From positions 1 through 35,350 of the forward strand of contig JANMAL010000157.1 of assembly GCA_031359775.1 (NCBI GenBank): a stretch of 35,350 nucleotides of DNA, given 5' to 3'. Positions 13,443-32,672 of this stretch are shown here, piece by piece. The DNA is from Blastocatellia bacterium. GTDB lineage: Bacteria > Acidobacteriota > Blastocatellia > RBC074. The translations under genes were made by a program, and so were the position numbers. The notes under the pieces are model-generated. The model was not told where the DNA came from and did no database searches. It saw only the letters and a program-made list of their open reading frames with translations. Each line of letters opens with the position of its first letter. Within the stretch, counting starts at the first letter, position 1.

Positions 13443-13593
13443 GCATGTTTTTACGGGGTTCCCCCCGTTCTTGTCCGCAAACATTGTGCCTGACAATAGC
13501 TTCTCTTTGGGAGCTTCTGTGACCGTGGATGTTATGGCAATCTGTGTCGCGACAAGTATCCAATCATTTCAAACCAAACTGGAGATGCTTTTT

Positions 13594-16500: not shown

Positions 16501-17220
16501 AGCAAGGCGTTGGGTACGCAATCCGCTGACCTGCCGGGCATTACCGGGTTCGGCGCTCCGAATAACCTTGACCAGCGGCGGGCCAATTATGGCATTCAGG
16601 ACTTTGACCGTCGGCACAACTTCAACCTCAACTGGGTTTATGAAATTCCCAAGTTGACGCAGAATCGCGCCCTCGGCTATGCCCTGAATGACTGGCAGTT
16701 GTCAGGCATCTACCGCTATTTGAGCGGTCAGCCTTACAGCGTTGGCTTCTCGATCCCTGGCATTTCAGCCTACACGATCACCGGGACGCAGAACGTCGAA
16801 GGCGGACGTATCGTCATCCTGAAAAATCCGGGCAGCGGCAGCAGCAGCGACCCCTACCGTCAGTTTGATGTGTCCGCGTTCACGATTCCGAACACGGGGA
16901 GTACCAGTTATGAGTCAGGGCGCAATTATCTGAACCGCGCGCCGGTCAATAGCTGGGATCTCTCACTGTCCAAGCGTTTCAAATTCTTGGAAACAGCGGA
17001 AGTAGAACTGCGCTTTGACGCTTTCAATGCGCTCAATCATACCCAGTTCGACGCCGTAAATACGACGCTCAACGTGGTTGGCTTTGAAACGTCCACCGGG
17101 AAGATCAATTCGAACCCGGCAAACCTTGCGTCGGAAACGGGCAATCTTACTGGCTTCGGAGCGGTTACTTCGGTACGCCCGCCACGTAACCTCCAACTCT
17201 CTGCGCGCTTCCGGTTTTAA
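13594..17220 (+). CDS. TonB-dependent outer-membrane receptor with N-terminal carboxypeptidase-regulatory-like domain
   Basis: I prefer the ATG at 13594 because GGAG lies 9 nt upstream and a signal peptide follows (MRMKLFFLFALLAVLSTGTGIAQ). The CarboxypepD_reg-like segment is GSIAGNVVDAQQAAVANATVTITDE…NGRFVFPALSPSTYKLAIEAKGFKK. A plug-like region follows (…ISANGLRTSANNLQIDGVS…), then a long beta-barrel ending in …RNLQLSARFRF (terminal aromatic). Confidence 0.9.
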   Translation: MRMKLFFLFALLAVLSTGTGIAQTTSGSIAGNVVDAQQAAVANATVTITDEARGFTQTVNADSNGRFVFPALSPSTYKLAIEAKGFKKSERTSILLVANDKLTLGDVTLEVGGANETVTITAEATLVQAESAERSYGIQGKAVDNIAVNGRSFVALASMAPGLITNTNNGVAGDITNISANGLRTSANNLQIDGVSTVDTGNNGQMVAVTLDAIAEFKVLTSNYQAEYGRSAGAQISAVTRSGTKDFHGTFYAFRRHDGMNANTWINNHTPSRDAANNLRPFTPKPKLDQRDIGYTIGGPVWIPKLFNENKDKAFFFFSQEHQKRLIPPAGPTRVTVPTALERTGDFSKSVDSSNNPFPYIRDYTTNLPCSASDTSGCFKDGGVLGKIPASRLYGLGLNILKIYPQPNTTGTGFNYITEAPTSQPQRQDLYRGDYNINNAWHASGKYLYYKNSPIQPYGSFVLGTNLPDYATIFPNNRYQVTGSVTGSLSPTMILEATFGQSHNFIDILPNNPKFNKTDLGLTGIPVLYPGAIQLNLPPQFSFGGRIANGPNVGSNNAPFHNFNTTRDWSVSLSKIVRQHNFKVGGFWQNSFKPQSSFANNNGVYNFSNDTNNPLDSGFGFANAALGIYNTFTQASGYYTGKYRYNNVEWFAQDNWKVTSRLTLDYGIRFYWIQPQYDEDLQTSNFLPERYNASNASILYRPVCLNNAASCSGTNRRAVDPRLLQTSGFTASTTNTIDGAYIGRLVPSVGSITNGVVQAGAGIEPGLYRNRGIHFAPRFGFAYDVSGKQSLVIRGGGGMFYDRPQGNTVFDLVQNPPVTVQPTLFYGRVQDVGTGLVLLAPPNLVAIDRVGKIPTTYAFNLGVQYKLPFESVLDVSYVGTVGSHLLQRRSLNAPNYGAAYLSQNQDPTSTANAAIAGNRALPLDFLRPYSGFGQIQYIEPASSSNYHSLQTSLNRRFSKGLLLGATYTWSKALGTQSADLPGITGFGAPNNLDQRRANYGIQDFDRRHNFNLNWVYEIPKLTQNRALGYALNDWQLSGIYRYLSGQPYSVGFSIPGISAYTITGTQNVEGGRIVILKNPGSGSSSDPYRQFDVSAFTIPNTGSTSYESGRNYLNRAPVNSWDLSLSKRFKFLETAEVELRFDAFNALNHTQFDAVNTTLNVVGFETSTGKINSNPANLASETGNLTGFGAVTSVRPPRNLQLSARFRF

Positions 17221-17237: not shown

Positions 17238-17358
17238 CCCGGCGTTGCGTTGTAACCTGCAAGCAGCGCCGGGCGTCTTAGCAATTTAATCCTTGCAGCA
17301 CTGCCGTCTGATTTGGGAAAGTTTTTGACTTTTCCCTGTCCAGGCGGCAGTGCTGCAA
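17238..17358 (+). terminator. Two tandem stem-loops downstream of the receptor gene (terminator candidates)
   Basis: Hairpin 1 pairs CCCGGCGTTGC (17238-17248) with GCAGCGCCGGG (17263-17273) with 1 mismatch. Hairpin 2 is a perfect 14-bp stem, TTGCAGCACTGCCG (17293-17306) / CGGCAGTGCTGCAA (17345-17358), with an inner GGGAAAG…CTTTTCCC helix. Neither has a strong U-tract. Confidence 0.5.
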
Positions 17359-17421
17359 GAAATTACCCCGCAGTTCAGACCGCTTACTTTCAATTTTAGT
17401 TACTATCCTGGAGGAACAACC

Positions 17422-17877
17422 ATGAATCGAAACGTCTGGAAACTGGTCGTGATTTTGGTGATCGCCACCTTTACGATCACCCTGTATGCACAGCAGCAAG
17501 GCGGCCCGCCCCAAGGTGGTCCCCCGCAAGGTGGTGGCGGCTTTAAGAACCTGAAGGTGTTGCCGAAAGATATGGCGCGGCCACAATTAATGGGCATTAT
17601 GCAAAACTGGACGCGCGCGCTCGGCGTCACCTGCAACCATTGCCATGTGGACGACAAGTCTGCCGATGACAAACCAGAAAAAGATGTGGCCCGCGCAATG
17701 GTCAAGATGATGATGAACCTGCGGCAAAACGCGGCGGAATTTCTGCCGGACAATCGCATTGCAAAGGTCAGTTGCTGGACGTGTCATCGCGGCAACGCCA
17801 AGATCGAATTGCCCGCGCCGCCGACGCCTCCGGCAGGACAAGGCGCTCCGCCAGCGCCCAAGCCGCCACAGAAATAG
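17422..17877 (+). CDS. Exported c-type cytochrome, photosynthetic-reaction-centre cytochrome c subunit-like family
   Basis: The ATG at 17422 has GGAGGA 8-13 nt upstream and is followed by a signal/anchor helix. There are two haem motifs, CNHCH and CWTCH. The context KNLKVLPKDM…LGVTCNHCH…ARAMVKMMMNL…VSCWTCHRG is typical of this family. The protein also has a low-complexity GGPPQGGPPQGGGG segment and a Pro-rich tail. Confidence 0.8.
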   Translation: MNRNVWKLVVILVIATFTITLYAQQQGGPPQGGPPQGGGGFKNLKVLPKDMARPQLMGIMQNWTRALGVTCNHCHVDDKSADDKPEKDVARAMVKMMMNLRQNAAEFLPDNRIAKVSCWTCHRGNAKIELPAPPTPPAGQGAPPAPKPPQK

Positions 17878-17997: not shown

Positions 17998-18456
17998 ATG
18001 TTAGCCGAAATTGAAGAACTCATTGTTGCGCCAGAAGAGGAACCAGACATGCCGTCGTTCAATCACAGCTACATTTGTGCGGAGATTCTGGAGCAGCTTT
18101 ACGCCAACAAAACCATCAAGGCGTTGCCCGAATTAACGTTGGAGATTGGCAAAGGCCTCACGCCCGACATCAGCATCTATCCCAAAGAAAAAGTCACGCC
18201 CAACTTTTTGAAGGACTACGCCCGGTATCCTGACATGCCGCTGCTGGCCATCGAGATTATTTCCGCCACCCAAAATATTCAGGATTTGCTGGAAAAAGCG
18301 GACGTTTTAATCTCTCATGGAATCAAAACTGTCTGGACGATTGAGCCGTTTACCAACACGATTTTCGTCACGACTCAGGGCGGGGTCAAAAAATTTCCTA
18401 GTCAGGCAATCGAAAGTGACGGCATCAGCGTGGACTTTGCCAAAATCTTTGGCTGA
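17998..18456 (+). CDS. Uma2 family (DUF820) PD-(D/E)xK endonuclease
   Basis: The 152-aa ORF has …NHSYICAEILEQL…, LTPDISIY and LLAIEIISATQN motifs matching the Uma2 D…ExxS core. It lies in a lower-GC stretch. Confidence 0.85.
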   Translation: MLAEIEELIVAPEEEPDMPSFNHSYICAEILEQLYANKTIKALPELTLEIGKGLTPDISIYPKEKVTPNFLKDYARYPDMPLLAIEIISATQNIQDLLEKADVLISHGIKTVWTIEPFTNTIFVTTQGGVKKFPSQAIESDGISVDFAKIFG

Positions 18457-18587: not shown

Positions 18588-20897
18588 ATGCACAAAAGGC
18601 GTTTGCAATTCGGTTGTTTGTTGTTCGCAATCGGACTTGCCACGTTCTTCCTTAGTTCTCAGCGGCAACCCGCACAAGCGGTTGGTGCCGATATTTCCGC
18701 CCAGCAGGCGTTGCTCGAAGAATACTGTGTTGGTTGTCACAACCAGAAAGCCAAAACGGCAGACATTTCCGTCGAAGGGCTGGATTTCATTAACGTCAGC
18801 AAAGACGCGGCGGTCTGGGAAAAAGTATTGCGCAAGGTTCGCACTGGGCAAATGCCGCCCGCTGGTATGCCGCATCCGAAAGCCCCGGATGTCACCGCAT
18901 TTGTGAACTGGTTGGAAGGCGCACTCGACAAAGCTGCGGCGGCAAATCCGAATCCGGGTCGGCCTGCCGCGCATCGTTTGAATCGCGCGGAATACAGCAA
19001 TGCGATACGGGATTTGCTCGCTGTTGACATCAAGCCGGGTCTGGCCTTGCCCATAGATGATTCGGGACACGGCTTCGACAATATCGGCGAAGTGTTGACG
19101 CTCTCGCCCGCGCTGCTCGAAAAATATATGTCCGCCGCACGGCGCATCAGTCGTTTGGCTATTGGCGATCCCACGATCAAGCCGACCGAAGAACGCTTCA
19201 CGCCACCGCGTCTTGGGCGCGGTGAGCGCGTCAGCGATGACCTGCCGTTTTATTCGCGTGGGGGTCTCTCATTTCAATATTACTTCCCGCACGATGCGGA
19301 ATACCTGTTGCGTGTCAAAACGCCGGGCGAAACTTCCCGCTTCTATGATCTGCGCCTGCCCATCAAAGCGGGTTTGCGTACTGTGGGCGTGACGTTCCCG
19401 CGCGAAGGTGCGAAAGCGGAACCACCCGTCCCGACGGGCCGCCGTGGTGGCGGCGGCGGGCCGATGGGGCCGGTCGCCAACGTCCCAATGGATTTGCGCC
19501 TGGATGGCGCGCGCGTCAAACGCTTTGAAGTGCCGGAAACAACGGGCATTGAAGTGTTCATCGTCAATGGGCCATTTAATACAACGGGACGCGGCGAGAC
19601 GCCGAGCCGCAGCAAGGTTTTCGTGTGCCGTCCGGCGCAGGCGAATGAAGAAACGCCATGTGCCAAAAAGATTTTGACGACACTGGCGCGCCGCGCTTTT
19701 CGCCGTCCGGTGACGAGTGCGGACATTATGCCGCTGCTCGCGTTTTATACCGAAGGGCGCAAGACAGGCGATTTCGAGAGCGGCATTCAAAGCGCTCTGG
19801 AAGCACTGCTGGTTTCGCCCGACTTTCTGTTTCGCATCGAACGTGATCCTCGCACCACAACACGCGTTTATCCGCTGAGTGATTTCGAATTGGCCACGCG
19901 GCTCTCATTCTTTTTATGGAGCAGCATTCCCGATGACGAATTGTTGATGCTGGCGGAGCAAGGGAAGTTGAAAGATGCTGCCGTCTTGCAACGACAAGTG
20001 CAACGGATGCTGGACGATCCGAAATCACAGGCCTTTGTGAACAATTTCGGCGGGCAATGGTTGCACCTGCGTAATCTGGAAACGACGACGCCCGATCCCG
20101 AATTGTTCCCCACTTTTGATGAAGGATTGCGAAGAGCGTTTCGGCGCGAGACCGAGTTGTTTTTTGAAAGCGTCGTGCGCGAAAACCGCAGCGTGTTTGA
20201 TTTGCTGGATGCGAATTACACCTTCCTGAATCAGCGGCTGGCGGAGCATTACGGCGTGCCGGGTGTGTATGGTTCGCAATTCCGCCGCGTTGCGCTTAAT
20301 GACGCGAATCGCGGCGGCTTACTGGGGCAGGGAAGCATCTTAACTGTAACTTCATATCCCAATCGCACGTCAGTAGTGCAGCGCGGCAAATGGATTCTGG
20401 AAAACCTGTTGGGTGCGCCGCCGCCGCCGCCCCCGCCCGACATTCCCGACTTAAAGCCGCATGGCAAGGATGGCCGGTTATTGAGTATGCGCGAGCAGAT
20501 GGAACAGCACCGGGCCAATCCAATTTGCGCTTCGTGCCACGCGCGGATGGACCCGATTGGTTTTGCGCTGGAAAACTATGACGGCATCGGGCGTTGGCGC
20601 ACGAAAGACGCGGGACTTTTGATTGATGCGTCGGGCAAGTTGCCGAACGGCACCAAATTCACGGGGCCGGGCGAATTGAAAAAGATTTTGTTGACCGGGC
20701 ATCGGGATGAATTCGTTGCGACGGTCACGGAAAAACTGTTAACGTATGCGCTGGGACGCGGGCTGGAATCTTATGATCTGCCCACCGTCCGCAATGTCAT
20801 GCGGGCCACCGCACCCGACAACTATCGCTTAGCAACGCTGATAAGCGCGATTGTCAAAAGCACACCTTTTCAAATGAGGAGCAAACCAAACGTATGA
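18588..20897 (+). CDS. DUF1592/DUF1595/DUF1587/DUF1588/DUF1585-type multidomain protein with N-terminal CxxCH haem motif
   Basis: The 769-aa ORF has a signal peptide and an N-terminal CVGCHNQKAKTA. Segments typical of this family include …FFLWSSIPDDELL…, …FGGQWLHLRNL…, …GLLGQGSILTVTSYPNRTSVVQRGKWILENLLG… and …ANPICASCHARMDPIGFALENYD…. Confidence 0.85.
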   Translation: MHKRRLQFGCLLFAIGLATFFLSSQRQPAQAVGADISAQQALLEEYCVGCHNQKAKTADISVEGLDFINVSKDAAVWEKVLRKVRTGQMPPAGMPHPKAPDVTAFVNWLEGALDKAAAANPNPGRPAAHRLNRAEYSNAIRDLLAVDIKPGLALPIDDSGHGFDNIGEVLTLSPALLEKYMSAARRISRLAIGDPTIKPTEERFTPPRLGRGERVSDDLPFYSRGGLSFQYYFPHDAEYLLRVKTPGETSRFYDLRLPIKAGLRTVGVTFPREGAKAEPPVPTGRRGGGGGPMGPVANVPMDLRLDGARVKRFEVPETTGIEVFIVNGPFNTTGRGETPSRSKVFVCRPAQANEETPCAKKILTTLARRAFRRPVTSADIMPLLAFYTEGRKTGDFESGIQSALEALLVSPDFLFRIERDPRTTTRVYPLSDFELATRLSFFLWSSIPDDELLMLAEQGKLKDAAVLQRQVQRMLDDPKSQAFVNNFGGQWLHLRNLETTTPDPELFPTFDEGLRRAFRRETELFFESVVRENRSVFDLLDANYTFLNQRLAEHYGVPGVYGSQFRRVALNDANRGGLLGQGSILTVTSYPNRTSVVQRGKWILENLLGAPPPPPPPDIPDLKPHGKDGRLLSMREQMEQHRANPICASCHARMDPIGFALENYDGIGRWRTKDAGLLIDASGKLPNGTKFTGPGELKKILLTGHRDEFVATVTEKLLTYALGRGLESYDLPTVRNVMRATAPDNYRLATLISAIVKSTPFQMRSKPNV

Positions 20898-22249
20898 TCG
20901 TGACCAGAAAATCTCTTCCGCGCCGTACCTTCTTACGCGGCATGGGCGTGGCCTTAGCTTTACCGATGCTGGATGCTATGACGCCTGCCTTGACGCCTGC
21001 GGCCAAACCGGTTGTTCGTTTGGGCTTCGTCTATGTACCCAACGGCGTGATTATGGACAAATGGACGCCGCTGGCAGAGGGCGCGAACTTTGAATTCAAA
21101 TCCACGCTGAAGTCGTTGGAGCCATTTCGCGAACGCTTGCTGGTACTCAGTGGCTTGGCGCAAGTGCAGGGACGCGCGCTCGGCGATGGCGCGGGCGATC
21201 ACGCACGCGCGGGGGCGACATTCCTGACAGGCGTGCATCCGAAGAAATCTGAGATCACTTTGCGCGCGGGCATTTCTGCGGATCAAATCGCGGCGCAGGA
21301 ACTCAGCAAATACACGCAATTCGGCTCGCTCGAACTCGGAATTGAATCAAATCAACTGGCCGGGAATTGTGACAGCGGTTATAGCTGCGCTTACACGAAC
21401 ACGATGGCGTGGCGCAGCGACACGACGCCGCTGCCGGTCGAAAACAATCCGCGCGCCATTTTCGAGCGGATGTTTGGCGATGGCGACAGCACCGATGCCG
21501 CCGCACGGATGGAGCAGTTCAAACGACAGCGCAGCCTGCTGGATTACGTCAATGGCAACCTCAAACGCCTGAGCACCACGCTGGGGCCGCAGGATCGCGT
21601 CAAGCTCAACGAATACACCGATGCGATTCGCGACATCGAACGGCGCATTCAAAAAGCTGAACAGCAAAATGCCACGATGAAAATGCCGGTGATGGAACGT
21701 CCAACTGCCGTGCCGGAAGAGTTTGAAGCGCATGTCAAGATGGTGATGGACTTGCAGGTGCTCGCCTACCAAACGGATCTGACACGCGTGATTACGCTGA
21801 TGATGGCGCGCGAGGGCAGCAATCGCCCCTACCGCAATATCGGCATTTCCGATGGGCATCACAACCTGACGCATCACCAGAATGATCCCGACAAAATTGC
21901 CAAAGTGACGAAGATCAATGAAGTGCAAGTGAAGATGTTTGCCTATTTGCTGGAACGCATGAAAGCGACGCCGGATGTGAATGGCAATTTGCTCGACAAC
22001 TCGCTGCTGATGTACGGCAGTAGCATCAGCGACGGCAATCTGCATACACATCACGACTTGCCCATCGTCCTGGCAGGCGGCGCAGCCGGTCAGGTCAAAG
22101 GCAATCGGCACGTGATGTATCCGAAAGAAACGCCGCTCAATAACCTGCTGCTGAGCATGTTGGAAACGGCAGGCGTCGGCGTCGAGAAATTCGGCGATGG
22201 CACGGGCAAACTGGATTTAGAGAAGCCCGTACAACTTTCCAAAAACTAA
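20894..22249 (+). CDS. DUF1552 domain protein with twin-arginine signal
   Basis: Its start overlaps the upstream stop in ATGA (20894-20897). The TAT-like N-terminus is SLPRRTFLRGMGVALALPML. Segments typical of DUF1552 include …SLELG…GNCDSGYSCAY…, …DLTRVITLMMAREGSNR…, …HHNLTHH… and …LLMYGSSISDGNLHTHHDLP…. Confidence 0.85.
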   Translation: MIVTRKSLPRRTFLRGMGVALALPMLDAMTPALTPAAKPVVRLGFVYVPNGVIMDKWTPLAEGANFEFKSTLKSLEPFRERLLVLSGLAQVQGRALGDGAGDHARAGATFLTGVHPKKSEITLRAGISADQIAAQELSKYTQFGSLELGIESNQLAGNCDSGYSCAYTNTMAWRSDTTPLPVENNPRAIFERMFGDGDSTDAAARMEQFKRQRSLLDYVNGNLKRLSTTLGPQDRVKLNEYTDAIRDIERRIQKAEQQNATMKMPVMERPTAVPEEFEAHVKMVMDLQVLAYQTDLTRVITLMMAREGSNRPYRNIGISDGHHNLTHHQNDPDKIAKVTKINEVQVKMFAYLLERMKATPDVNGNLLDNSLLMYGSSISDGNLHTHHDLPIVLAGGAAGQVKGNRHVMYPKETPLNNLLLSMLETAGVGVEKFGDGTGKLDLEKPVQLSKN

Positions 22250-22897: not shown

Positions 22898-24241
22898 ATG
22901 AAGTTGCGAACTCTCCTGTCGGCTTTGATCGCGCTTGGCCTGCTGGCGCCACCTTGTCTGGCAAATGGCCTGGCTTTGCTGGAAGCTGTCAAGCGCCGCG
23001 ATCACAAGGCGCTCACCACACTTCTGAAAGCCAAAGCTGACGTTAATGTTGCGCAACCGGATGGCGCGACGCCCTTGGCCTGGGCCATTTATCTGGACGA
23101 TCAAAAAGCGGCAGAGCTGTTGTTGGCTGCCGGTGCCAAGGTCAACACCGCAGATGAGTACGGAGAAACGCCGCTCACCCTGGCCTGTAATAACGGCAAT
23201 GCGGCACTCGTCAGTAAGTTGATCGGCGCGGGCGCAGAAGTAAATGCGGCGCGCTGGGATGGCACGACGGCGTTGATGCTGGCGGCGAATTCCGGCAATG
23301 TCGAAGCTGTCAAAACATTGCTTGCGCATGGTGCGCAAGTCAACGTCGCCGAAACGCGCAAGGGCCAGACGCCGCTGATGTGGGCTGCGTCAGAAGGACA
23401 TTCTGAAGTGGTGCGCGTGCTGATTGCCGCAGGTGCGGATGCCAAGGTTGTTTCCAAAACGGGCTACACGTCGTTGCTTTTCACTGTGGTCAAGAACGAT
23501 GAGAAATCCGTGCAACATTTGTTGGCGGCGGGAGCGGATCCCAACACCAAAATGCCCGATGGCACGCCTGCCCTGAGTGCCGCTGCCGTCTTTCGCAGCG
23601 TCGCTGCTGCCAGCGCTTTAGTAGATGGCGGCGCAGATGTCAAAGCGGCGGATCAGCGCGGCAACACGCCTTTGCACGGCGCAGCACAGCTTGGCGACGT
23701 GGAACTCGTCAAGAAATTACTGGCCAAAGGTGCTGACCCGAATGCGCGCAATGGAAAAGCCTTGGCACGCGCGCCGCAAGGTTTTTTCCGTCCACCAGCC
23801 GGTGAAGTCTCGCCGCTCCACATCGCCGCCCGCACCAACCAATTGGAAATCGTGAAATTGCTGCTGGCTGCCAAAGCGGATCCCAAACTGAAAGGCGAAG
23901 ACGGCACGACGTTGTTGATGCAGGCCGTCGCCAGCACCAACGTCGAACTGGTCAAATATATTTTTGCATTGGACTCAGAAGTGCAGGCCGTGACGGAAAG
24001 CAAAGGCACGGTCATGCATTCGGCTGTCACCGGCGTTGGTTCGAATGCGGAGCAACAAAGAGAGGTTTGCAAGGTGATCCGGTTTTTGGCGGAAAAAGGC
24101 GCGCCGCTGGATGAGCGGAATGCTACAGGCCGGACGCCCATTGATGTGGCTGACTTTCTTCCGCTGGATCAAGCCGTAGATTTGTTGACCGAACTGATTA
24201 TTAAGTCTGGTGCTAAACCAAAGACCCCAACGAAGCGTTAA
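22898..24241 (+). CDS. Exported ankyrin-repeat protein (about 10-12 ANK repeats)
   Basis: The 447-aa ORF has a signal peptide and reiterated 33-aa motifs (G.TPL..A…G….V..LL..GA.VN), for example DGATPLAWAIYLDDQKAAELLLAAGAKVN and YGETPLTLACNNGNAALVSKLIGAGAEVN. Confidence 0.9.
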   Translation: MKLRTLLSALIALGLLAPPCLANGLALLEAVKRRDHKALTTLLKAKADVNVAQPDGATPLAWAIYLDDQKAAELLLAAGAKVNTADEYGETPLTLACNNGNAALVSKLIGAGAEVNAARWDGTTALMLAANSGNVEAVKTLLAHGAQVNVAETRKGQTPLMWAASEGHSEVVRVLIAAGADAKVVSKTGYTSLLFTVVKNDEKSVQHLLAAGADPNTKMPDGTPALSAAAVFRSVAAASALVDGGADVKAADQRGNTPLHGAAQLGDVELVKKLLAKGADPNARNGKALARAPQGFFRPPAGEVSPLHIAARTNQLEIVKLLLAAKADPKLKGEDGTTLLMQAVASTNVELVKYIFALDSEVQAVTESKGTVMHSAVTGVGSNAEQQREVCKVIRFLAEKGAPLDERNATGRTPIDVADFLPLDQAVDLLTELIIKSGAKPKTPTKR

Positions 24242-24334
24242 TTTTATTTTCCATTGCTCAATTGGTGTTGTCCGGTGGGCCGCTCAAACATGACCATTGG
24301 AAGATAAGTCAGGTCTCTCTTCAGGAAAAAACCA

Positions 24335-25279
24335 ATGAAAAATCTACTTACCATAACGTTGTTATGCGCTGCCTTTGTGTTGCCTGCTCAGGCTGCTGCG
24401 CCCATTCGCGTGATGTTATTGGATGGCGAGAGCGGAGGCTCGTATCACAAATGGCAGCTTGTCACGCCGGTACTGAAAAAACAGCTTGAGGAAACCGGCC
24501 TGTTTCAAGTGGACGTCGTGACCGCGCCGCCTGCGAATGGCGATTTCAGTGGCTTCAAACCTCAGTTCAGCAAGTATCAGGTCATCGTCATGAACTATGA
24601 CGCGCCGGATGAACGCTGGTCGGCGGAATTGAAATCCTCCTTTGAGCAATATGTCAAAAACGGCGGCGGACTGGTTACAGTGCATGCGGCGGACAATGCG
24701 TTTGGCAAGTGGAAGGAATTCAACGAAATGATCGGCATCGGCGGCTGGCGCGGGCGCAATGAAAATTCCGGCCCGTATTGGTTTATGAAAGAGGGCAAGT
24801 TAATGCCTGACACTTCGCCCGGCAACGCGGGCAGCCACGGCGCGCGCCAGCCCTATCAAATGACGGTGCAGGAGTCGAATCACCCGATTACCAAAGGTCT
24901 GCCGAAAGTCTGGATGCATCAGGGCGATGAATTGTATGCGCGCTTGCGCGGCCCCGGCAAAAATATGACTGTCCTTGCTACGGCGTATGCCGATCCCGAA
25001 AACAAAGGGACAGGCCGCGATGAGCCAATGTTGATGACGTTGAGTTACGGTAAGGGCAGAGTCTTTCACACTGCGCTCGGCCACGACGTTGTTGCGCTCA
25101 GTTGCGTCGGCTTTGCCGCAACGTTGCAGCGCGGCACCGAATGGGCGGCAACGGGCAAGGTGACGCAAAAAGTTCCGATGAATTTCCCGACCGCAAATTC
25201 AGTGAGTTATCGTGCGGATATTGCCGCAATGGACCCGAATTACAAGCGCGGCTTGAACGGGTTGGATGCTGCAAGGTAA
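24335..25279 (+). CDS. Exported ThuA-like (trehalose-utilisation protein A family) domain protein
   Basis: The 314-aa ORF has a signal peptide. Segments characteristic of ThuA domains are IRVMLLDGESGG…HKW, YQVIVMNYD…W, YVKNGGGLVTVHAADNAF..W and GRVFHTALGHD. Confidence 0.8.
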   Translation: MKNLLTITLLCAAFVLPAQAAAPIRVMLLDGESGGSYHKWQLVTPVLKKQLEETGLFQVDVVTAPPANGDFSGFKPQFSKYQVIVMNYDAPDERWSAELKSSFEQYVKNGGGLVTVHAADNAFGKWKEFNEMIGIGGWRGRNENSGPYWFMKEGKLMPDTSPGNAGSHGARQPYQMTVQESNHPITKGLPKVWMHQGDELYARLRGPGKNMTVLATAYADPENKGTGRDEPMLMTLSYGKGRVFHTALGHDVVALSCVGFAATLQRGTEWAATGKVTQKVPMNFPTANSVSYRADIAAMDPNYKRGLNGLDAAR

Positions 25280-25403
25280 GCATCTTTAAGCATCTTAGGG
25301 ATCGCTACAAACCGCTAAAACAAAAGGTAGAACAAAAATTCCATTTGTTCCGGTTCTCCCTCCACGACCTGGCCTGAAGACCAACAGACGTTTGTTGTAC
25401 CTT

Positions 25404-25466
25404 TTCAGAGCAGGATGAAAGAGAAACCAGCTTGTGCATCCTGTTCTGAAACCTCTGTGTTTTCTA
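25404..25466 (+). terminator. Stem-loop plus T-rich tail downstream of the ThuA-like gene
   Basis: TTCAGAGCAGGATG (25404-25417) pairs with CATCCTGTTCTGAA (25437-25450) at 13/14 positions and is followed by ACCTCTGTGTTTTCTATG. Confidence 0.5.
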
Positions 25467-25535
25467 TGCTTCATTGCTTTGGCGGGTTTATTCAATTTCT
25501 GATTTCCAATCCTTAAATATTGGTGGGAAGCGCTC

Positions 25536-26375
25536 ATGTCTTATCAAACCAAACTTCGTAGTTTTGTGGTGCTGGCGATGGTCGCACTGTTATTGAGTCT
25601 GTCTGTGCAGCAGCCGAGTGCGCAGGAACCGGCGGGCGGCGGTGGGCGGCGCGGCGGCAATCTGCGCGAGTTTCTCGGTCTTGGCCCGGCGCCCGATGCG
25701 GAAGCCGCGAAAAAGGGCGAGCCGCTCTATAACCAATCCTGCGTGGGCTGTCACGGCAAAGAGGGGCGCGGTGCTCAGGCTCCCAGCCTGATTCGCTCTG
25801 CCTTGGTTTTGCATGATGAGAAAGGCGAGAAGCTGGCTCCCATTGTCAAAGAAGGGCGCGGAACCATGCCGGGCTTTCCGAACTTATCGAAGGACGACGT
25901 GTACAACCTTTCGCAATACCTTCATTTGCAAGTGGAACTGACCGCGAATCGCGGCACCTATGGAGCCACCTACGCGGCGCAGCGCAATCAGGCCACCGGC
26001 AATGCCAAAAAAGGTGAAGAGTTTTTTCAGAGCAATTGCACAAGCTGTCATGCCGCGACGGGGGACCTTGCCAAGATTGGCGCGAAGTTCCCACAGATTG
26101 CCGCGCTGAAGAATCGCTTTCTCTGGCCTGCAACGCCCGGCCCCGCCAAAGCAACTGTGACGACGGCGGCGGGCAAAACCATCGCCGGAACCGTCAAGAC
26201 CAACAACGATTTTGAAATTTCGCTGCTGGATGCCGACGGCAAGTATCACTACTGGCCGCGCCCGCAAGTGAAAGTTGAGATCGAAGACAAGCTGACCGGG
26301 CATCGCGCTTTGTTGCCGAAATATTCGGACGCTGACATCAATAATCTCGCAGCCTATCTGGTGACACTGAAATGA
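25536..26375 (+). CDS. Exported dihaem c-type cytochrome
   Basis: The 279-aa ORF has a signal peptide and two haem motifs, CVGCHGKEGRG and CTSCHAATGD. The first domain has the distal-Met context GTMPGF. The stop overlaps the PQQ dehydrogenase start (ATGA, 26372-26375). Confidence 0.85.
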   Translation: MSYQTKLRSFVVLAMVALLLSLSVQQPSAQEPAGGGGRRGGNLREFLGLGPAPDAEAAKKGEPLYNQSCVGCHGKEGRGAQAPSLIRSALVLHDEKGEKLAPIVKEGRGTMPGFPNLSKDDVYNLSQYLHLQVELTANRGTYGATYAAQRNQATGNAKKGEEFFQSNCTSCHAATGDLAKIGAKFPQIAALKNRFLWPATPGPAKATVTTAAGKTIAGTVKTNNDFEISLLDADGKYHYWPRPQVKVEIEDKLTGHRALLPKYSDADINNLAAYLVTLK

Positions 26376-28000
26376 AACGAATCCAACTTTTACTTGCACT
26401 TGTATTGCTTACCAGTTCGCTTTGCGCGCAAGGACTCGATCCCAAAGCGCTCACGCTCTTCAAGCAGCCTGCCGATTCCTGGCCGACGTACAACGGCGAT
26501 TATTCGGGGCGGCGCTACAGCGAATTGAAGCAAATTAACAAGGACAACCTTGACCTGCTCAAGATCGAATGGATGTATCGCATTCGCGGCATCGGGCCAC
26601 AGCGCGGCGTCGGAGATCCGGTCATCAAATCCACACCACTGCTCGTGAATGGCATTCTGTACTTCACGATTCCCGATCACATTTTTGCCATCAATGCGCG
26701 CACCGGCGAACAGCTTTGGCAATACGATTTTGAAGACAAGGGCGGGCATCTGGTCGGGCAGCGCGGCGTTGGGATGTATGGCGACTGGCTCTACTTTGAA
26801 AGCCCCGACGGCTGGTTCATTTCGCTCAACGCCAAAGACGGCAAGGAGCGCTGGCGCAAAAAGATTGCGGACGAGAAGCAGCAATACTTCACGACAATGG
26901 CTCCGCTGATTGTCAAAAATCACATCATCATTGGCGTGGGCGGCGATGCGATGGACGTACGCGGTTATCTGGAATCGCGCGATCCCAAAACCGGCGAATT
27001 GCAATGGCGCTGGTACACGACGCCCGAAAAAATGGGTGACCCCGGTTCTGAAACGTGGCCGAATCTGGAGGCGATGCATCACGGCGGCGGCATGACGTGG
27101 ATGCCCGGCACCTATGATCCCGATTTGAATTTGATTTATTGGGGGACAGGCAACGCGAACCCTGTGTTTGCAGGCCAAAGCCGTAAGGGCGCGAATTTAT
27201 GGACGGCCTGCATTGTGGCGCTGAATCCTGATACCGGAAAATTGGCCTGGTATTTTCAGCCTTCGCCGCACGACACCCACGATTGGGACAACGTCGAAAC
27301 GCCTGTCCTCTTTGACGCCGTCATCAATGGGCAGCCGCGTAAATTGTTGGGGCAAGCTGCGCGCGCCGGATGGTTCTTCGTACTGGATCGCACGAACGGC
27401 AAGAACCTGGTTTCCAAACCCTTCACCGGCACGGGCAATTGGGCTTTAGGCGTGGATACCAAAGGCCAGCCGATCCCGAACCCCGCAAAAGAACCAACCG
27501 TAGACGGCTCAATGATTGATATGCCCGCGATGGGCGCGACCAATTGGCCGCCGCCCAGTTACAGCCCACAGACCGAATTGTTCTACTTCAACGGCACACA
27601 AGGTTACGGGTTAGCATATCTGTATGACACGTCCGACAAACCGCAAGGTTACGGCGGCGGCAGCGGCGGCAACTTCGATGCAAGTTCGGCGTTATTTGCG
27701 ATGGACATTCGGACAGGCGCAGTGAAGTGGAAGCACGAACATCGCGGCGGTGGCCCCGGCGGCGGCAGCATGAGCGGCGGCATTTTGACCACCGCAGGCC
27801 GCTTATTATTCACGGGCGATTCCGGCGAACTGGTCGCGTTTGATCCCGCTGGCGGCAAACCGCTCTGGCATCAACGCCTGACCAGCAGCGTCAGCAACGG
27901 GCCTTCGACCTGGGAGTTGGACGGCAAGCAATATCTGATCGTCGGCGCAGGCGATACGCTCTACGCGCTGACTGTCGCAGGCAAGAAAATTACAGAATGA
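26372..28000 (+). CDS. Exported PQQ-dependent dehydrogenase (quinoprotein alcohol/sugar dehydrogenase superfamily, divergent)
   Basis: The 542-aa ORF has a signal peptide and the N-terminal hallmark WPTYNGDYSGRRYSEL.QIN. Eight-blade W-motif repeats include …INARTGEQLWQYD…, …LNAKDGKERWRK…, …DPKTGELQWRW…, …NPDTGKLAWYF… and …DIRTGAVKWKHE…. Other segments are GTGNANP and HDWDNVE (D-W-D at 27281-27289). Confidence 0.9.
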   Translation: MKRIQLLLALVLLTSSLCAQGLDPKALTLFKQPADSWPTYNGDYSGRRYSELKQINKDNLDLLKIEWMYRIRGIGPQRGVGDPVIKSTPLLVNGILYFTIPDHIFAINARTGEQLWQYDFEDKGGHLVGQRGVGMYGDWLYFESPDGWFISLNAKDGKERWRKKIADEKQQYFTTMAPLIVKNHIIIGVGGDAMDVRGYLESRDPKTGELQWRWYTTPEKMGDPGSETWPNLEAMHHGGGMTWMPGTYDPDLNLIYWGTGNANPVFAGQSRKGANLWTACIVALNPDTGKLAWYFQPSPHDTHDWDNVETPVLFDAVINGQPRKLLGQAARAGWFFVLDRTNGKNLVSKPFTGTGNWALGVDTKGQPIPNPAKEPTVDGSMIDMPAMGATNWPPPSYSPQTELFYFNGTQGYGLAYLYDTSDKPQGYGGGSGGNFDASSALFAMDIRTGAVKWKHEHRGGGPGGGSMSGGILTTAGRLLFTGDSGELVAFDPAGGKPLWHQRLTSSVSNGPSTWELDGKQYLIVGAGDTLYALTVAGKKITE

Positions 28001-28072
28001 GCATTGACCGCCGAGTAAAAACTGGTGGCTTTGCTGAAGCTGGAACGTCAATATTTTTGGTTAGGAGAATCA

Positions 28073-29158
28073 ATGAAGGAACTCACGCGCAGAGATTTTG
28101 TGAAGAATGCTTCGGCGCTACTGGCGACAGGAACGATGGGCCATTCGCTGTTGGCTCACGCACCCGCCGCGCCCATGTCAAAAATGGGCATCGCTTCGAC
28201 TTCGTTTATGGGCGCACAAATCCCCGGCAGCCCCGCACAACCGGGAGCCGCGCAGCCTCCGATGCGTGCGCAGGGGCGCGATGCATATGAGTTTTTAGAA
28301 AAATGTCATGCGCTGGGAGCAGGCGGAATTCAAACCTCGATCAATGGCGACCTGAAAAAGTTGCGCGCGCGGGCCGATGAATTGGGGATGTATCTGGAAG
28401 GCATGGTTTCGATTCCGCGTAACGGTGATATGGCGGCGCTGGAAAAAGGTTTGGCCGATTGCAAAGCGGCGGGCATCACGGTTGTCCGCTCGGCAATGCT
28501 CGGTGGACGACGCTATGAAACGTTTGCGACGCTGGCGGATTGGAAAAAATGGGTGGATCAAAGCCACGCCGCCTTAACGGCAGCCATGCCGATCATCGAA
28601 AAACACAAGGTCGTCGTCGCGCTCGAAAATCACAAAGACTGGACGCTGGAAGATTTTCTGCGGTTGCTTAGAACTTATCAGAGCGAATATCTGCAAGTCT
28701 GTCTGGATTTCGGCAATAACATTTCCATGCTGGATGACCCGTACGAAGTGATCGAAGGGCTTGCACAGTACGCGAAATCCACGCACATCAAAGACATGGG
28801 CGTACAACCTTACGCGGACGGCTTTTTATTATCCGAAGTCCCGCTCGGCACCGGGCTGCTTGATCTGCCCCGCATTGTAGCGACGATCAAAAAGGCGAAC
28901 CCGAATACAAAATTCTCCCTCGAAATGATTACGCGTGATCCGTTAAAAGTGCCGTGCCTGACGAAAAAATATTGGGAAGTGTTCCCCGACCGCAATGGCA
29001 GATATTTGGCGCAAACCGTCAAGCTGGTGCACGAAAAATCCAGCCGCAATCCATTGCCCGCGATTGCTCAACTGAACGTCGCAGAACGCCTCAAGTTTGA
29101 AGAAGACAACATCAAAGCTTGTATGCGCTATGTGGATGAGAAGCAGTTGCTGGCCTAA
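28073..29158 (+). CDS. TAT-exported xylose-isomerase-like TIM-barrel protein (sugar phosphate isomerase/epimerase family)
   Basis: The ATG at 28073 has AGGAG 6-10 nt upstream. The twin-arginine N-terminus is MKELTRRDFVKNASALLATG. Segments VVVALENHKDW, CLDFGN and STHIKD are typical of AP_endonuc_2/xylose-isomerase-like metal-site strands. Confidence 0.85.
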   Translation: MKELTRRDFVKNASALLATGTMGHSLLAHAPAAPMSKMGIASTSFMGAQIPGSPAQPGAAQPPMRAQGRDAYEFLEKCHALGAGGIQTSINGDLKKLRARADELGMYLEGMVSIPRNGDMAALEKGLADCKAAGITVVRSAMLGGRRYETFATLADWKKWVDQSHAALTAAMPIIEKHKVVVALENHKDWTLEDFLRLLRTYQSEYLQVCLDFGNNISMLDDPYEVIEGLAQYAKSTHIKDMGVQPYADGFLLSEVPLGTGLLDLPRIVATIKKANPNTKFSLEMITRDPLKVPCLTKKYWEVFPDRNGRYLAQTVKLVHEKSSRNPLPAIAQLNVAERLKFEEDNIKACMRYVDEKQLLA

Positions 29159-29224
29159 CACAGCATCCGGTTCGTGCCGCGCTCGATTTTTCAGTTCCAA
29201 GCTCTGAAACAAAAGGAAACCCCC

Positions 29225-30526
29225 ATGAAAAGTGATTTGACGCGCCAACTTGGCACGCTGTCAATGGTTGCCGTTTTACTGTTGAGCGCCTCACTGCCGC
29301 AGCCCATCACTGCGCAAACGTTGCCCAAAGCCAAGCCGGAAGAGGTGGGGCTTTCGACCGAGCGGTTGCAGCGCATCAACGAAGTCATCCAACGCTACAT
29401 TGACAGCAAGCAGATTTCGGGCGCGGTCACATTGGTCGCGCGCAAAGGCCGCATCGCGCATTACGAAGCGCACGGGCAAATGGACATTGAAGCGAAAAAG
29501 CCAATTCGCAAAGACGCCCTCTTTCGCATGGCATCATCCACGAAACCTGTTGCCAGCGTGGCGATCATGATGTTGTTGGAAGAAGGCAAAGTCCGCTTAA
29601 GCGATCCCGTTTCCAAATTCATCCCGGAATTCAAAAATCCCAAAGTTGCCGTGTTGAAATCAGCAATGCCGCCGCCTGCCACGCCGGGACAAACGCCGCT
29701 CGCGCCCGACATCTACACGATCCCGGCGACGCGTGAAATCACGGTGCGCGACCTGTTGACGCACACTTCGGGCCTCGGCAGTGGCGGCAGCGCGGCGGGA
29801 GAAATGGCAAAGGTCATGCAGGCACGCAAGCCCACCGATACGCTCAGTGATTTCGTGCCGCAGTTGGGGGCCGTGCCGCTGGATTTTCAACCCGGCACGC
29901 AATTTCGTTACAGCGGTTTGGCGGGGATAGATGTGCTGTCGCGCATCGTCGAAATTGCTTCGGGGCTGACGTTCGATCAATTTTTGCAGCAGCGCGTGTT
30001 CGATCCGCTCGGTATGAAAGACACGTTCTTTGCGCTGCCCGAAGATCGCCAACCGCGCCTGATGACGCTGTATCGGCGCGCGGGCAACAATCTGGAAAAA
30101 CATCCGAATCAAGAGATGTTGATGAACCGCACGTACTTTTCCGGCGCAGCCGGATTGGTCAGCACGGCGGAAGATTATTTTCACTTCGCACAAATGCTGG
30201 CGAATGGCGGACAACTGAACGGCAAACGTTTGCTCTCGCCGCGCACCGTTGAATTGATGTCGTCTAATCACACGGGCGAGATGTTTCCGGGACAACTCGG
30301 ACGCCCGCCCGGCATGGGCTTTGGCTTCGCCGTTGAAGTCGTGGTGGATGCGATCAAAGCGGATTCACGCCGCTCTGTCGGCAGCTTTGGTTGGGACGGC
30401 GCATTCGGCACGCATTTCTGGATAGACCCGAAAGAAAAGATCGTCGCCGTGCTGATGATCCAAACCGCGAATCGTGACCTGCATCGGGATTTTGAGAATG
30501 CCGTGATGCAGGCGATTGTGGAGTAA
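29225..30526 (+). CDS. Exported serine hydrolase, beta-lactamase/penicillin-binding (class C-like) family
   Basis: The ATG at 29225 is followed by a signal peptide. The SxxK motif appears in FRMASSTKP. Other family segments are LLTHTSGL, a YSG (YxN-type) region and a C-terminal W.DP…V.VLM.Q segment. Confidence 0.85.
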   Translation: MKSDLTRQLGTLSMVAVLLLSASLPQPITAQTLPKAKPEEVGLSTERLQRINEVIQRYIDSKQISGAVTLVARKGRIAHYEAHGQMDIEAKKPIRKDALFRMASSTKPVASVAIMMLLEEGKVRLSDPVSKFIPEFKNPKVAVLKSAMPPPATPGQTPLAPDIYTIPATREITVRDLLTHTSGLGSGGSAAGEMAKVMQARKPTDTLSDFVPQLGAVPLDFQPGTQFRYSGLAGIDVLSRIVEIASGLTFDQFLQQRVFDPLGMKDTFFALPEDRQPRLMTLYRRAGNNLEKHPNQEMLMNRTYFSGAAGLVSTAEDYFHFAQMLANGGQLNGKRLLSPRTVELMSSNHTGEMFPGQLGRPPGMGFGFAVEVVVDAIKADSRRSVGSFGWDGAFGTHFWIDPKEKIVAVLMIQTANRDLHRDFENAVMQAIVE

Positions 30527-31784: not shown

Positions 31785-32672
31785 ATGAACAACTACCCGC
31801 GCCGCACCTTTCTGCTTGGTTCCCTGGGACTGGCAGCAGCAACCCTCGCTCAGGCGCAAACTGCACCGCTTACGGCTGGGCAAGTGATTGAGCGGATCAA
31901 GGCGCAGGTTGGCATTCCGTGGCGTGCGCAAACCGTAGACAACATCATTGCGGGTACGGCGGAAACACCGGTCAAAGGCATCGCGACGACAATGATGGCA
32001 ACGCTGGATGTTGTGAAACGCGCTGCTGCCAGCGGCAAGAACCTGATCATCACGCACGAATCCACGTTCTTCTCGCATCAGGATCGCACTGACCAGATTC
32101 AGCAAGACGCAACGTACAAATACAAGCTCGACTTCCTCAACAAAAACAATATGGTCGTGTTCCATTTTCACGATCATTGGCACGGGCTGAAGCCTGTTGA
32201 CGGCGTTGCTACGGGAATGATTCGGGAATTGGGTTGGGAGAAGAACAACGATCCGCAGAATTTTCGTCAGTTTACGTTTCCTGGCATCCCGCTCGCCAAG
32301 CTGGCGCAAGAGATGCAGACGAAACTGAAGATTCGCACAATGCGCGTGGTAGGCGATCCAAATTTGTCGGTCAGGCGTGTGATGGCAAGCTGGGGCAATT
32401 GCAGCCTGATGCCCGGCATTCCGTTTCTCTCACGACCGGAAGTGGATGTGCTGGCGATTGGCGAAACGCACGAATGGGAACTGGTCGAATACGCGCAAGA
32501 CATGATTGCTGCGGGCCAAAAGAAGGCGCTGATCGTGCTGGGTCACGTCGTGTCAGAACAAGCGGGAATGAAGTACTGCGCTGAATGGTTGAAGGGGTTT
32601 GTGAATGAAGTTCCGATTGAATTTATCGCCGCTGCCGAACCATTCTGGCGACCTGATAATCCCGTGCGCTAA
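31785..32672 (+). CDS. Exported NIF3-like (YbgI/DUF34-type dinuclear-metal-centre family) protein
   Basis: It starts 4 nt after the upstream stop. The N-terminus [25 protein letters not shown] looks like a TAT/Sec signal. By eye it aligns to E. coli YbgI as follows: [34 protein letters not shown] with [34 protein letters not shown]; [10 protein letters not shown] with VQRVAWCTGG; [12 protein letters not shown]…[18 protein letters not shown] with DAFITGEVSEQT…AGHHATERGGIRALSEWL. Confidence 0.6.

Follow-up and report, generated by a model that had tools for sequence, protein, structure and literature searches.

The 35,350-nucleotide (nt) stretch of DNA analysed here, taken from a Blastocatellia bacterium (assembly GCA_031359775.1, contig JANMAL010000157.1, positions 1 to 35,350) and hereafter called the window, carries four consecutive genes for an exported ThuA-like protein, a dihaem c-type cytochrome, a quinoprotein-type dehydrogenase and a xylose-isomerase-like TIM barrel. 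Genes were called as open reading frames (ORFs) on the plus strand, domains were assigned with Pfam and families with the NCBIfam hidden Markov models (HMMs), and export signals were read by eye from the translations. A first-pass annotation of this DNA had placed four exported plus-strand proteins here and had read them as one periplasmic pathway in which a sugar is oxidised and then rearranged. The ORFs are indeed found at these positions, and the Pfam check returns the expected family for each of them:

24335-25279 (+): ThuA-like protein, exported; 314 amino acids (aa), Sec-type signal, PF06283
25403-25451 (+): stem-loop in the gap between the ThuA and cytochrome genes; 15-nt arms
25536-26375 (+): dihaem c-type cytochrome, exported; 279 aa, Cytochrome_CBB3 and Cytochrom_C domains
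26372-26375 (+): ATGA overlap of the cytochrome stop and the quinoprotein start, read from the sequence
26372-28000 (+): 8-bladed quinoprotein-type dehydrogenase, exported; 542 aa, PQQ, TIGR04528
28073-29158 (+): xylose-isomerase-like TIM barrel, exported by the twin-arginine (TAT) route; 361 aa from ATG 28073, the ORF opening at GTG 28025

All four translations show an export signal, as had been proposed. The Sec-type signal of ThuA reads MKNLLTITLLCAAFVLPAQA and is followed by AA, that of the cytochrome ends in LLLSLSVQQPSAQ followed by E, and that of the quinoprotein is MKRIQLLLALVLLTSSLCAQ followed by G, these three cleavage points being our own reading. The N-terminus of the TIM barrel, TRRDFVKNASALLATG, is a twin-arginine signal with a TRRDF motif, for which the TAT profile TIGR01409 gives a borderline score (16.8 bits vs a cutoff of 16.7). 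The ORF of this last protein does open at GTG 28025, but translation most likely begins at ATG 28073, which is preceded by an AGGAGA Shine-Dalgarno sequence. Since every gene between 18588 and 34922 lies on the plus strand and most of their products are exported, the co-directionality of the four genes says little by itself about their linkage. The widest gap within this long array, of 256 bp, is the one between the ThuA and cytochrome genes.

The cytochrome-quinoprotein pair

One genome per species was scanned for the quinoprotein, and the best 80 of at least 596 confirmed matches, 52-93% identical to the window protein, were retained as a set of loci (designated by L numbers) whose neighbouring genes were found by tblastn with the window proteins. 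A dihaem cytochrome gene lies directly upstream of the quinoprotein gene in 79 of these 80 loci, the remaining one being truncated by the end of its contig. The ATGA overlap reported earlier at 26372-26375 is present in the sequence, and such a 4-nt stop/start overlap recurs in 62 of the 69 cytochrome-quinoprotein pairs of related loci. Furthermore, exactly two CxxCH motifs are present in 44/45 aligned cytochrome homologues. Therefore, the pair forms a functional core in which the cytochrome is the dedicated, translationally coupled partner of the quinoprotein, as the coupling of enzyme and electron acceptor put forward in the first-pass annotation had implied. Clustering of all ORFs flanking the pair in the 80 loci revealed no other universal neighbour. 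In the window, the cytochrome is composed of a Cytochrome_CBB3 domain (residues 57-129) and a Cytochrom_C domain (residues 157-279), with haem sites at C69-H73 and C168-H172. Its second domain weakly resembles the PVC-type haem-binding family TIGR02603 (44.7 bits, under the cutoff of 68).

The pair is often duplicated locally, for instance in L009 (6278-16476), L064 (1379-6701), L047 (4195-7394), L011 and L056, with up to four quinoprotein genes in about 10 kb in L009, which suggests paralogue diversification. In L083 (5-1774), a cytochrome c domain and, C-terminal to it, a PQQ propeller are joined in a single 589-aa protein; its gene lies about 4 kb from an orthologue of the TIM barrel, with transposase genes of insertion sequence (IS) elements in between. 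The contigs of L009, L038, L039, L041 and L075, labelled Solirubrobacteraceae, Caulobacter, Nevskia, Betaproteobacteria or Heliobacteriaceae despite a typical acidobacterial gene content, are probably mis-binned.

The quinoprotein matches Pfam PQQ (pyrroloquinoline quinone; E 2e-74) and is a member of TIGR04528, 'acido-empty-quinoprotein group A', scoring 789.3 bits against a cutoff of 650 over model positions 2-492 of 493. Its score for TIGR03075, the methanol/ethanol dehydrogenase family of PedH, ExaA, XoxF and MxaF, stays under the cutoff (411.9 vs 480.05 bits). Database homologues at 72-90% identity are found in Blastocatellia, in Bryobacteraceae and elsewhere among the Acidobacteriota. 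The name acido-empty-quinoprotein, for which the searchable literature held no description, is attached to many of them. Among solved structures the nearest relative is PedH (6ZCV; sequence E 2.8e-76), a lanthanide-dependent ethanol dehydrogenase, and PDB relatives also include PQQ enzymes acting on sorbose and deoxynivalenol (DON). The AlphaFold2 (AF2) model (pLDDT 66, pTM 0.75) is an eight-bladed β-propeller that superimposes on PedH with a TM-score of 0.77-0.78 at about 30% identity, the TM-scores for PedH, ADH-IIB and XoxF ranging over 0.74-0.78. The PQQ-type assignment made from the first reading of the DNA is thus upheld by the domain match, but it had overlooked both the membership in TIGR04528 and the loss of two residues that are hallmarks of PQQ alcohol dehydrogenases.

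These losses were found in the active-site columns of 86 TIGR04528-type homologues, down to about 52% identity, mapped through the alignment of the window protein with PedH. The PedH metal ligands Glu199, Asn281, Asp323 and Asp325 (PMC11845868) align with A193, N261, D304 and D306. Both Asp residues, which lie in the motif HDTHDWD, are present in 86/86 homologues, so that the Asp-x-Asp lanthanide signature is kept, and N261 is present in 84. Other conserved residues are R131 and W243 (86 each), R331 (84), N391 and W392 (85 each); the Arg and Trp counterparts contact PQQ in relatives. In the column of PedH Glu199 the window protein has A193, and the homologues show Ala, Ser or Asp. This column is flanked by D192 and D195, conserved in 82 of the 86, and this Asp-x-x-Asp could substitute for the metal-binding Glu; the active-site loops of the AF2 model have a pLDDT below 50 and are too uncertain to place either residue in its stead. 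A vicinal Cys-Cys ring is typical of methanol/ethanol-type PQQ dehydrogenases. At its two columns, where PCCDV of PedH faces GGHLV of the window protein, Cys occurs in 0/86 homologues, and the two residues read G125 followed by His or Ile at 126, Gly-His being found in the clade of the window and Gly-Ile in most other members. Judged from the alignment, the active site is constrained rather than decaying and represents a variant of the classical one, for which PQQ together with a lanthanide or calcium would be the predicted cofactors.

The curated name of the family raises another possibility, namely that the propeller is 'empty' or carries a different load. The protein would then not use PQQ and would be an apo-protein whose function is not redox, or it would hold some other cofactor or metal site. 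The name implies doubt on PQQ occupancy, and it reflects the absence of pqq genes in the acidobacterial genomes analysed first. The lost Cys-Cys pair and the Ala, Ser or Asp at the Glu199 column would also agree with an empty propeller, as would the window itself, where ORF and Pfam annotation, in keeping with the first reading, revealed no gene for PQQ biosynthesis or import. However, the catalytic Asp, the Asn/Asp metal ligands, the Arg and the Trp are nearly invariant over the 86 homologues, and an invariant, translationally coupled c-type cytochrome implies redox turnover. Moreover, many bacteria obtain PQQ by scavenging instead of synthesising it (PMC12124388), and a PQQ protein of another kind, with six blades, from an uncultivated acidobacterium has been shown to bind PQQ and La (bioRxiv 10.64898/2026.07.10.737718). 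Because the active site is conserved and the cytochrome partner obligate, we regard an empty propeller as unlikely.

TIM-barrel and ThuA genes around the pair

The TIM barrel belongs to Pfam AP_endonuc_2 (E 2.1e-16). Residues E185, D212, H238 and E284 are invariant in the aligned homologues and would constitute its metal-site quartet. A search of the PDB with the single sequence returned one marginal match and a profile search uncharacterised or distant entries, while Foldseek with the AF2 model (pLDDT 77.8) retrieved generic keto-sugar TIM barrels at 13-18% identity, among them AtHYD, YcjR and DgpB/C. The label '3-oxoisoapionate decarboxylase' borne by homologues in JGI data is an automatic name and was not adopted.

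The proposed link of this gene with the pair was corroborated by the neighbourhoods. Pfam finds AP_endonuc_2 in 22 of the 141 immediate neighbours of the pair; the runner-up, MacB-type permeases, accounts for 6 and ThuA for 2. When the HMMs of three TIM subfamilies occurring beside the pair were used to count such genes by distance, 20 were found within 500 bp, which corresponds to 2.3 per 10 kb, compared with 0.05-0.13 per 10 kb at 0.5-10 kb, an enrichment of about 30-fold. Nearly all pair-adjacent TIM genes encode twin-arginine proteins; both sides of the pair, both strands and several subclades of the quinoprotein are represented among them. In at least 12 loci having both the pair and a TIM barrel, no Gfo/Idh/MocA (GFO) or GMC oxidoreductase gene is found nearby. 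Orthologues of the window TIM barrel itself adjoin the pair in 9-10 of the 80 loci. Collectively, these data show that the association is real and facultative, concerning about a quarter of the loci.

The reverse view was obtained by a metagenome scan with the TIM subfamily of the window, which yielded 34 loci flanked on each side by 1.5 kb or more. The gene adjoins a TAT GFO gene in 25 of them, a GMC oxidoreductase gene in 5, the pair in 1 and none of these in 3. The usual partner of this subfamily is, therefore, a TAT GFO oxidoreductase and not the pair. In five loci of the quinoprotein set (L014, L023, L024, L028 and L035), genes for a GMC protein and a small TAT subunit, of the glucoside 3-dehydrogenase type, adjoin the pair and, in four of them, also a TIM gene. 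More than one dehydrogenase may be served by the dihaem cytochrome at such loci.

The ThuA-like protein is a clear member of PF06283 (E 4.7e-32; 112 bits vs a cutoff of 33) and matches PDB 4E5V, a structural-genomics entry named 'putative ThuA-like protein', with an E value of 8.8e-91. Its orthologues share 73% identity or more across acidobacterial classes. Among 13 sampled contexts, a small set skewed to relatives of the window, ThuA adjoins the pair in 7, and the remaining ThuA genes stand alone. The order cytochrome-quinoprotein-ThuA is found in L165, from a Bryobacteraceae genome, in one JGI contig and in L173; the quinoproteins of these loci are only 43-50% identical to one another and to that of the window, and the ThuA proteins 70-78%. 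ThuA orthologues are thus found next to pairs of three quinoprotein subclades in two gene orders, in agreement with the link suggested at first. From the quinoprotein side ThuA is rare, with a match in 2 of the 80 loci, L001 and a weak one of 25% identity in L061. We conclude that ThuA is a recurrent, facultative accessory neighbour of the pair. The literature searched held nothing relevant on a ThuA-cytochrome link. In L173 the surroundings comprise arabinofuranosidase and enolase-superfamily genes and esterases.

The gap upstream of the cytochrome gene contains a hairpin, previously given as terminator-like at 25404-25466. The hairpin is real and lies at 25403-25451, with arms 93% complementary, a 19-nt loop, a folding free energy (dG) of -26.3 kcal/mol and a z-score of -3.65. 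On the other hand, no clean T-run follows it and the terminator scan, which gave 14 sites vs 14.6 expected by chance, did not call it. Neither promoter nor terminator scans found an excess of sites over shuffled sequence, and Rfam returned no match for 24100-29300 at E <= 1. At the same position upstream of the cytochrome gene, unrelated palindromes with arms of about 33 nt occur in L167 (6989-7069) and L081 (3295-3399), and the gap of L001 is 34 bp long and holds no palindrome. The hairpin may act as a transcript boundary or stabiliser. Two ideas about this region were rejected. One is that the hairpin is a repeated element, the window arms and the L167 and L081 palindromes each occurring once in all DNA compared. 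The other is the remnant of a lost GFO gene, for which tblastn with the L081 and L084 proteins gave no match in the 256-bp gap or in the whole window.

Comparison of Blastocatellia loci shows that the interval between ThuA and the TIM barrel is variable. The order is ThuA-cytochrome-quinoprotein-TIM in the window, L001 and L167, and this exact order is limited to this one lineage; it is ThuA-GFO-TIM in L084, ThuA-GFO-cytochrome-quinoprotein-TIM in L081 and DinB-ThuA-TIM in L166. The same position can thus be filled by a TAT GFO gene (ThuB-like), by the pair, by both or by neither. The four-gene set is a mosaic specific to the lineage, with the two conserved genes as its core, so that its recurrence as a conserved module, foreseen in the first-pass annotation, did not hold: a literal conserved four-gene operon is ruled out by the scarcity of ThuA and TIM genes in the 80 loci and by the usual GFO partner of the TIM barrel. 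One could go further and regard the four genes as unrelated neighbours in an array of secreted-protein genes, any functional meaning being limited to the pair. The long run of co-directional genes for mostly exported products and the gene content between DinB and the esterases, which differs among close relatives, would be compatible with such a coincidence, but the TIM enrichment and the independent gene arrangements argue against it, and we consider it quite improbable.

The rest of the window was compared with the same loci. Downstream of the four genes lie esterases bearing CBM48 (Pfam), two of which flank a Nif3-like (DUF34) protein (31785-32672, +) with an apparent twin-arginine signal. 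This esterase-Nif3-esterase block is syntenic in L001, L081, L082 and L166, and an exported Nif3-family protein is unusual. Directly upstream of ThuA, a 447-aa protein composed almost entirely of ankyrin repeats (22898-24241, +; also in L084) is exported, since it has an N-terminal signal peptide. At 18588-22249 (+), two genes overlap by 4 nt, one for a DUF1592/DUF1588-type protein that bears a cytochrome c motif at its N-terminus and the other for a DUF1552 (HXXSHH) protein. Neither these two genes nor a Uma2 gene (17998-18456) nor the ankyrin gene occurs in L166 and L167, which are otherwise syntenic, and all of them therefore look like lineage-specific insertions. Further upstream, a TonB-dependent-type outer-membrane protein (13471-17220, +; CarboxypepD_reg, OMP_b-brl_4 and Plug domains) is followed by a small CytoC_RC-like cytochrome (17350-17877, +). 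In L166 (3-4277) both genes keep their synteny with the ThuA region, and this receptor family occurs within 10 kb of the cytochrome-quinoprotein pair in 12 loci.

A respiration-linked oxidation step as the proposed function

The best reading of these gene neighbourhoods is that the pair provides an oxidation step whose keto product is handled by the TIM barrel. Indeed, since the TIM subfamily adjoins oxidoreductases of three unrelated cofactor types, namely GFO, GMC and quinoprotein with cytochrome, the pair could well supply this step. The Sec-exported quinoprotein would oxidise a hydroxyl group of the substrate in a site built on the PQQ/metal plan, and the electrons would pass to the dihaem cytochrome and on to the aerobic respiratory chain. 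A keto-sugar, keto-glycoside or keto-polyol would thereby be made in the periplasm and then undergo elimination, hydration or isomerisation by the metal-dependent TIM barrel, with ThuA as an accessory of the pathway. We infer the direct transfer of electrons to the cytochrome, the carbohydrate nature of the substrate and the order of the reactions. The pair would then constitute a respiration-linked alternative to the GFO oxidoreductase with bound nicotinamide adenine dinucleotide (NAD), a proposal that, on the sequence evidence, we consider about evenly balanced. The earlier oxidise-then-rearrange interpretation is partly supported by these results, and its idea that a PQQ enzyme takes the place of a ThuB-type partner is indirectly supported by the shared position that the pair and the GFO gene occupy in relatives.

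Precedents exist for the individual steps. In Alistipes and Bacteroides, periplasmic oxidation of glycosides at C3 is carried out by a TAT GFO enzyme, and a secreted TIM barrel named 'sugar phosphate isomerase' is a 3-keto-β-glucoside 1,2-lyase (bioRxiv 10.1101/2024.03.25.586180). A link to cytochrome c has been described for the 3-ketoglycoside dehydrogenases ThuAB and LacABC, the latter of the GMC type (PMC8121099). The PQQ enzymes for sorbose and DON among the PDB relatives also speak for the proposed function, as does the carbohydrate-related surrounding of the pair, with CBM48-bearing esterases in the window and an arabinofuranosidase, enolase-superfamily genes and esterases in L173.

Several observations weigh against a shared pathway. 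About 75% of the pairs have no nearby TIM barrel, ThuA matches are scarce around the quinoproteins and its sampled contexts few and skewed, and, with the 256-bp gap and its hairpin in between, ThuA may not share a transcript with the other three genes. The closest characterised relatives of the quinoprotein are ethanol and methanol dehydrogenases, not sugar dehydrogenases; the metal-binding Glu and the vicinal Cys-Cys of these enzymes are missing among the 86 aligned homologues, the family name questions the presence of PQQ, and the window has no pqq genes. The PDB sequence, profile and Foldseek searches assign no particular reaction to the TIM barrel. Finally, L081 has the GFO gene as well as the pair, so simple replacement of one by the other is not the sole reading of the shared position.

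Part of this evidence would be explained by a pair acting on its own, as a periplasmic alcohol, aldehyde or diol dehydrogenase, probably lanthanide-dependent and with a cytochrome of its own in the manner of PedH/ExaF with cytochrome c550 or XoxF with XoxG, that has been inserted into a ThuA-GFO-TIM cluster without sharing its pathway. The best solved relatives (PedH, quinohaemoprotein alcohol dehydrogenases and XoxF) and the invariant Asp-x-Asp point in this direction, and so do the normal partnership of the TIM subfamily with a TAT GFO and the loci L084 and L166, where ThuA and the TIM barrel remain associated although the pair is absent. Such a stand-alone enzyme is credible because most pairs lack a TIM or ThuA neighbour, the solved relatives act on simple alcohols and L081 keeps a GFO gene beside the pair. 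However, it would leave unaccounted for the roughly 30-fold enrichment, which involves three TIM subfamilies in varied arrangements, often with no other oxidoreductase near, as well as the ThuA orthologues that adjoin three divergent quinoprotein subclades. In addition, the quinoprotein has lost the Cys-Cys ring of PedH, and its score of 411.9 is below the methanol/ethanol family cutoff of 480. Altogether, we find a stand-alone alcohol dehydrogenase possible but somewhat doubtful.

If the pair does feed keto products to the TIM barrel, a broader proposal can be put forward tentatively, namely that TIGR04528 quinoproteins with their dihaem cytochromes form a third, respiration-coupled class of periplasmic dehydrogenases for the secondary alcohols of glycosides and sugars, beside the NAD-bound GFO and the flavin adenine dinucleotide (FAD)-dependent GMC enzymes. 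The three classes would be interchangeable ahead of TIM barrels and ThuA, and the quinoproteins would have a novel metal site, with Asp-x-x-Asp for Glu and no Cys-Cys, that probably binds a lanthanide. The TIGR04528-type family is large, with at least 596 matching stretches in species-representative genomes and often several copies per locus. The present analysis provides it with a fixed partner, the dihaem cytochrome, with a distinctive active-site signature and, from the neighbourhoods, with candidate substrates, namely sugars, glycosides and polyols yielding substrates for TIM barrels.

Three elements appear to be new. The first is the translationally coupled dihaem cytochrome partner, none being described in the literature searched. 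The second is the predicted active site, free of Cys and with Asp-x-x-Asp for Glu, in combination with the lanthanide Asp. The third is the neighbourhood pattern, that is, the TIM enrichment, the adjacency of ThuA across subclades and the shared oxidoreductase position, which is likewise absent from the literature searched. Should the proposed function be true, a quinoprotein route linked to the respiratory chain would join the newly recognised oxidise-then-eliminate pathways of glycan breakdown, and lanthanide/PQQ biochemistry would be extended to a new metal-site variant. It would also bear on the use of scavenged PQQ by soil bacteria that possibly do not make it. Acidobacteriota are among the most abundant soil bacteria, and, with a third dehydrogenase class, their paralogue-rich soil members would gain respiratory energy at the first periplasmic step of plant-glycan breakdown.

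Comparison with known systems

The closest parallels to the pair are PedH/ExaF and XoxF-XoxG (6ZCV/6ZCW, 4MAE, 6DAM), which share with it the periplasmic location, the 8-bladed propeller, the Asn, the catalytic Asp and the additional lanthanide-type Asp, and an adjoining gene for a c-type cytochrome. In contrast to PedH, the window protein has Gly-His for Cys-Cys and, for Glu199, an Ala flanked by D192 and D195, and it scores under the cutoff of TIGR03075, to which this group belongs. The window cytochrome is dihaem, with a PVC-type-like second domain, whereas the cL/c550 cytochromes of this group are monohaem, and the stop/start overlap conserved in the window pair further distinguishes it. 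Likewise, MxaF-MxaG, XoxF-XoxG and ExaA-ExaB resemble it by the conserved adjoining c-type cytochrome gene, with monohaem proteins in place of the dihaem one. Among catalogued families, the quinoprotein is a full member of TIGR04528, a curated but uncharacterised one.

With ThuA/ThuB of Sinorhizobium and Agrobacterium, the window shares a ThuA-family protein, and in L081 and L084 the ThuA gene lies directly beside a ThuB-like GFO gene. The window ThuA differs in being exported and of a 4E5V-like subgroup, and the window contains neither a ThuB-like gene nor a thuEFGK-type transporter. The glucoside 3-dehydrogenase LacABC, composed of a GMC flavoprotein, a TAT small subunit and a cytochrome c, differs in cofactor and fold, and the window has no GMC gene; the likeness lies in a periplasmic oxidation of sugars to 3-keto products that is linked to cytochrome c.

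The oxidise-then-eliminate pathway of AL1-3/BT1-3 offers the nearest model for the scheme as a whole. Some of its elements are not found here, since tblastn detects no GFO match in the window and no DUF1080 is present among the annotated ORFs, and the structural likeness of the window TIM barrel to known keto-sugar enzymes is no more than generic. The oxidant would also differ, electrons passing from a quinoprotein to a cytochrome and not to a recycled, tightly bound NAD. Nevertheless, the TIM subfamily of the window is usually found beside a TAT GFO gene, as AL1 is with AL3, and the order of events proposed for the window would be the same, with a periplasmic oxidation followed by the action of an exported, metal-dependent TIM barrel on the keto product.

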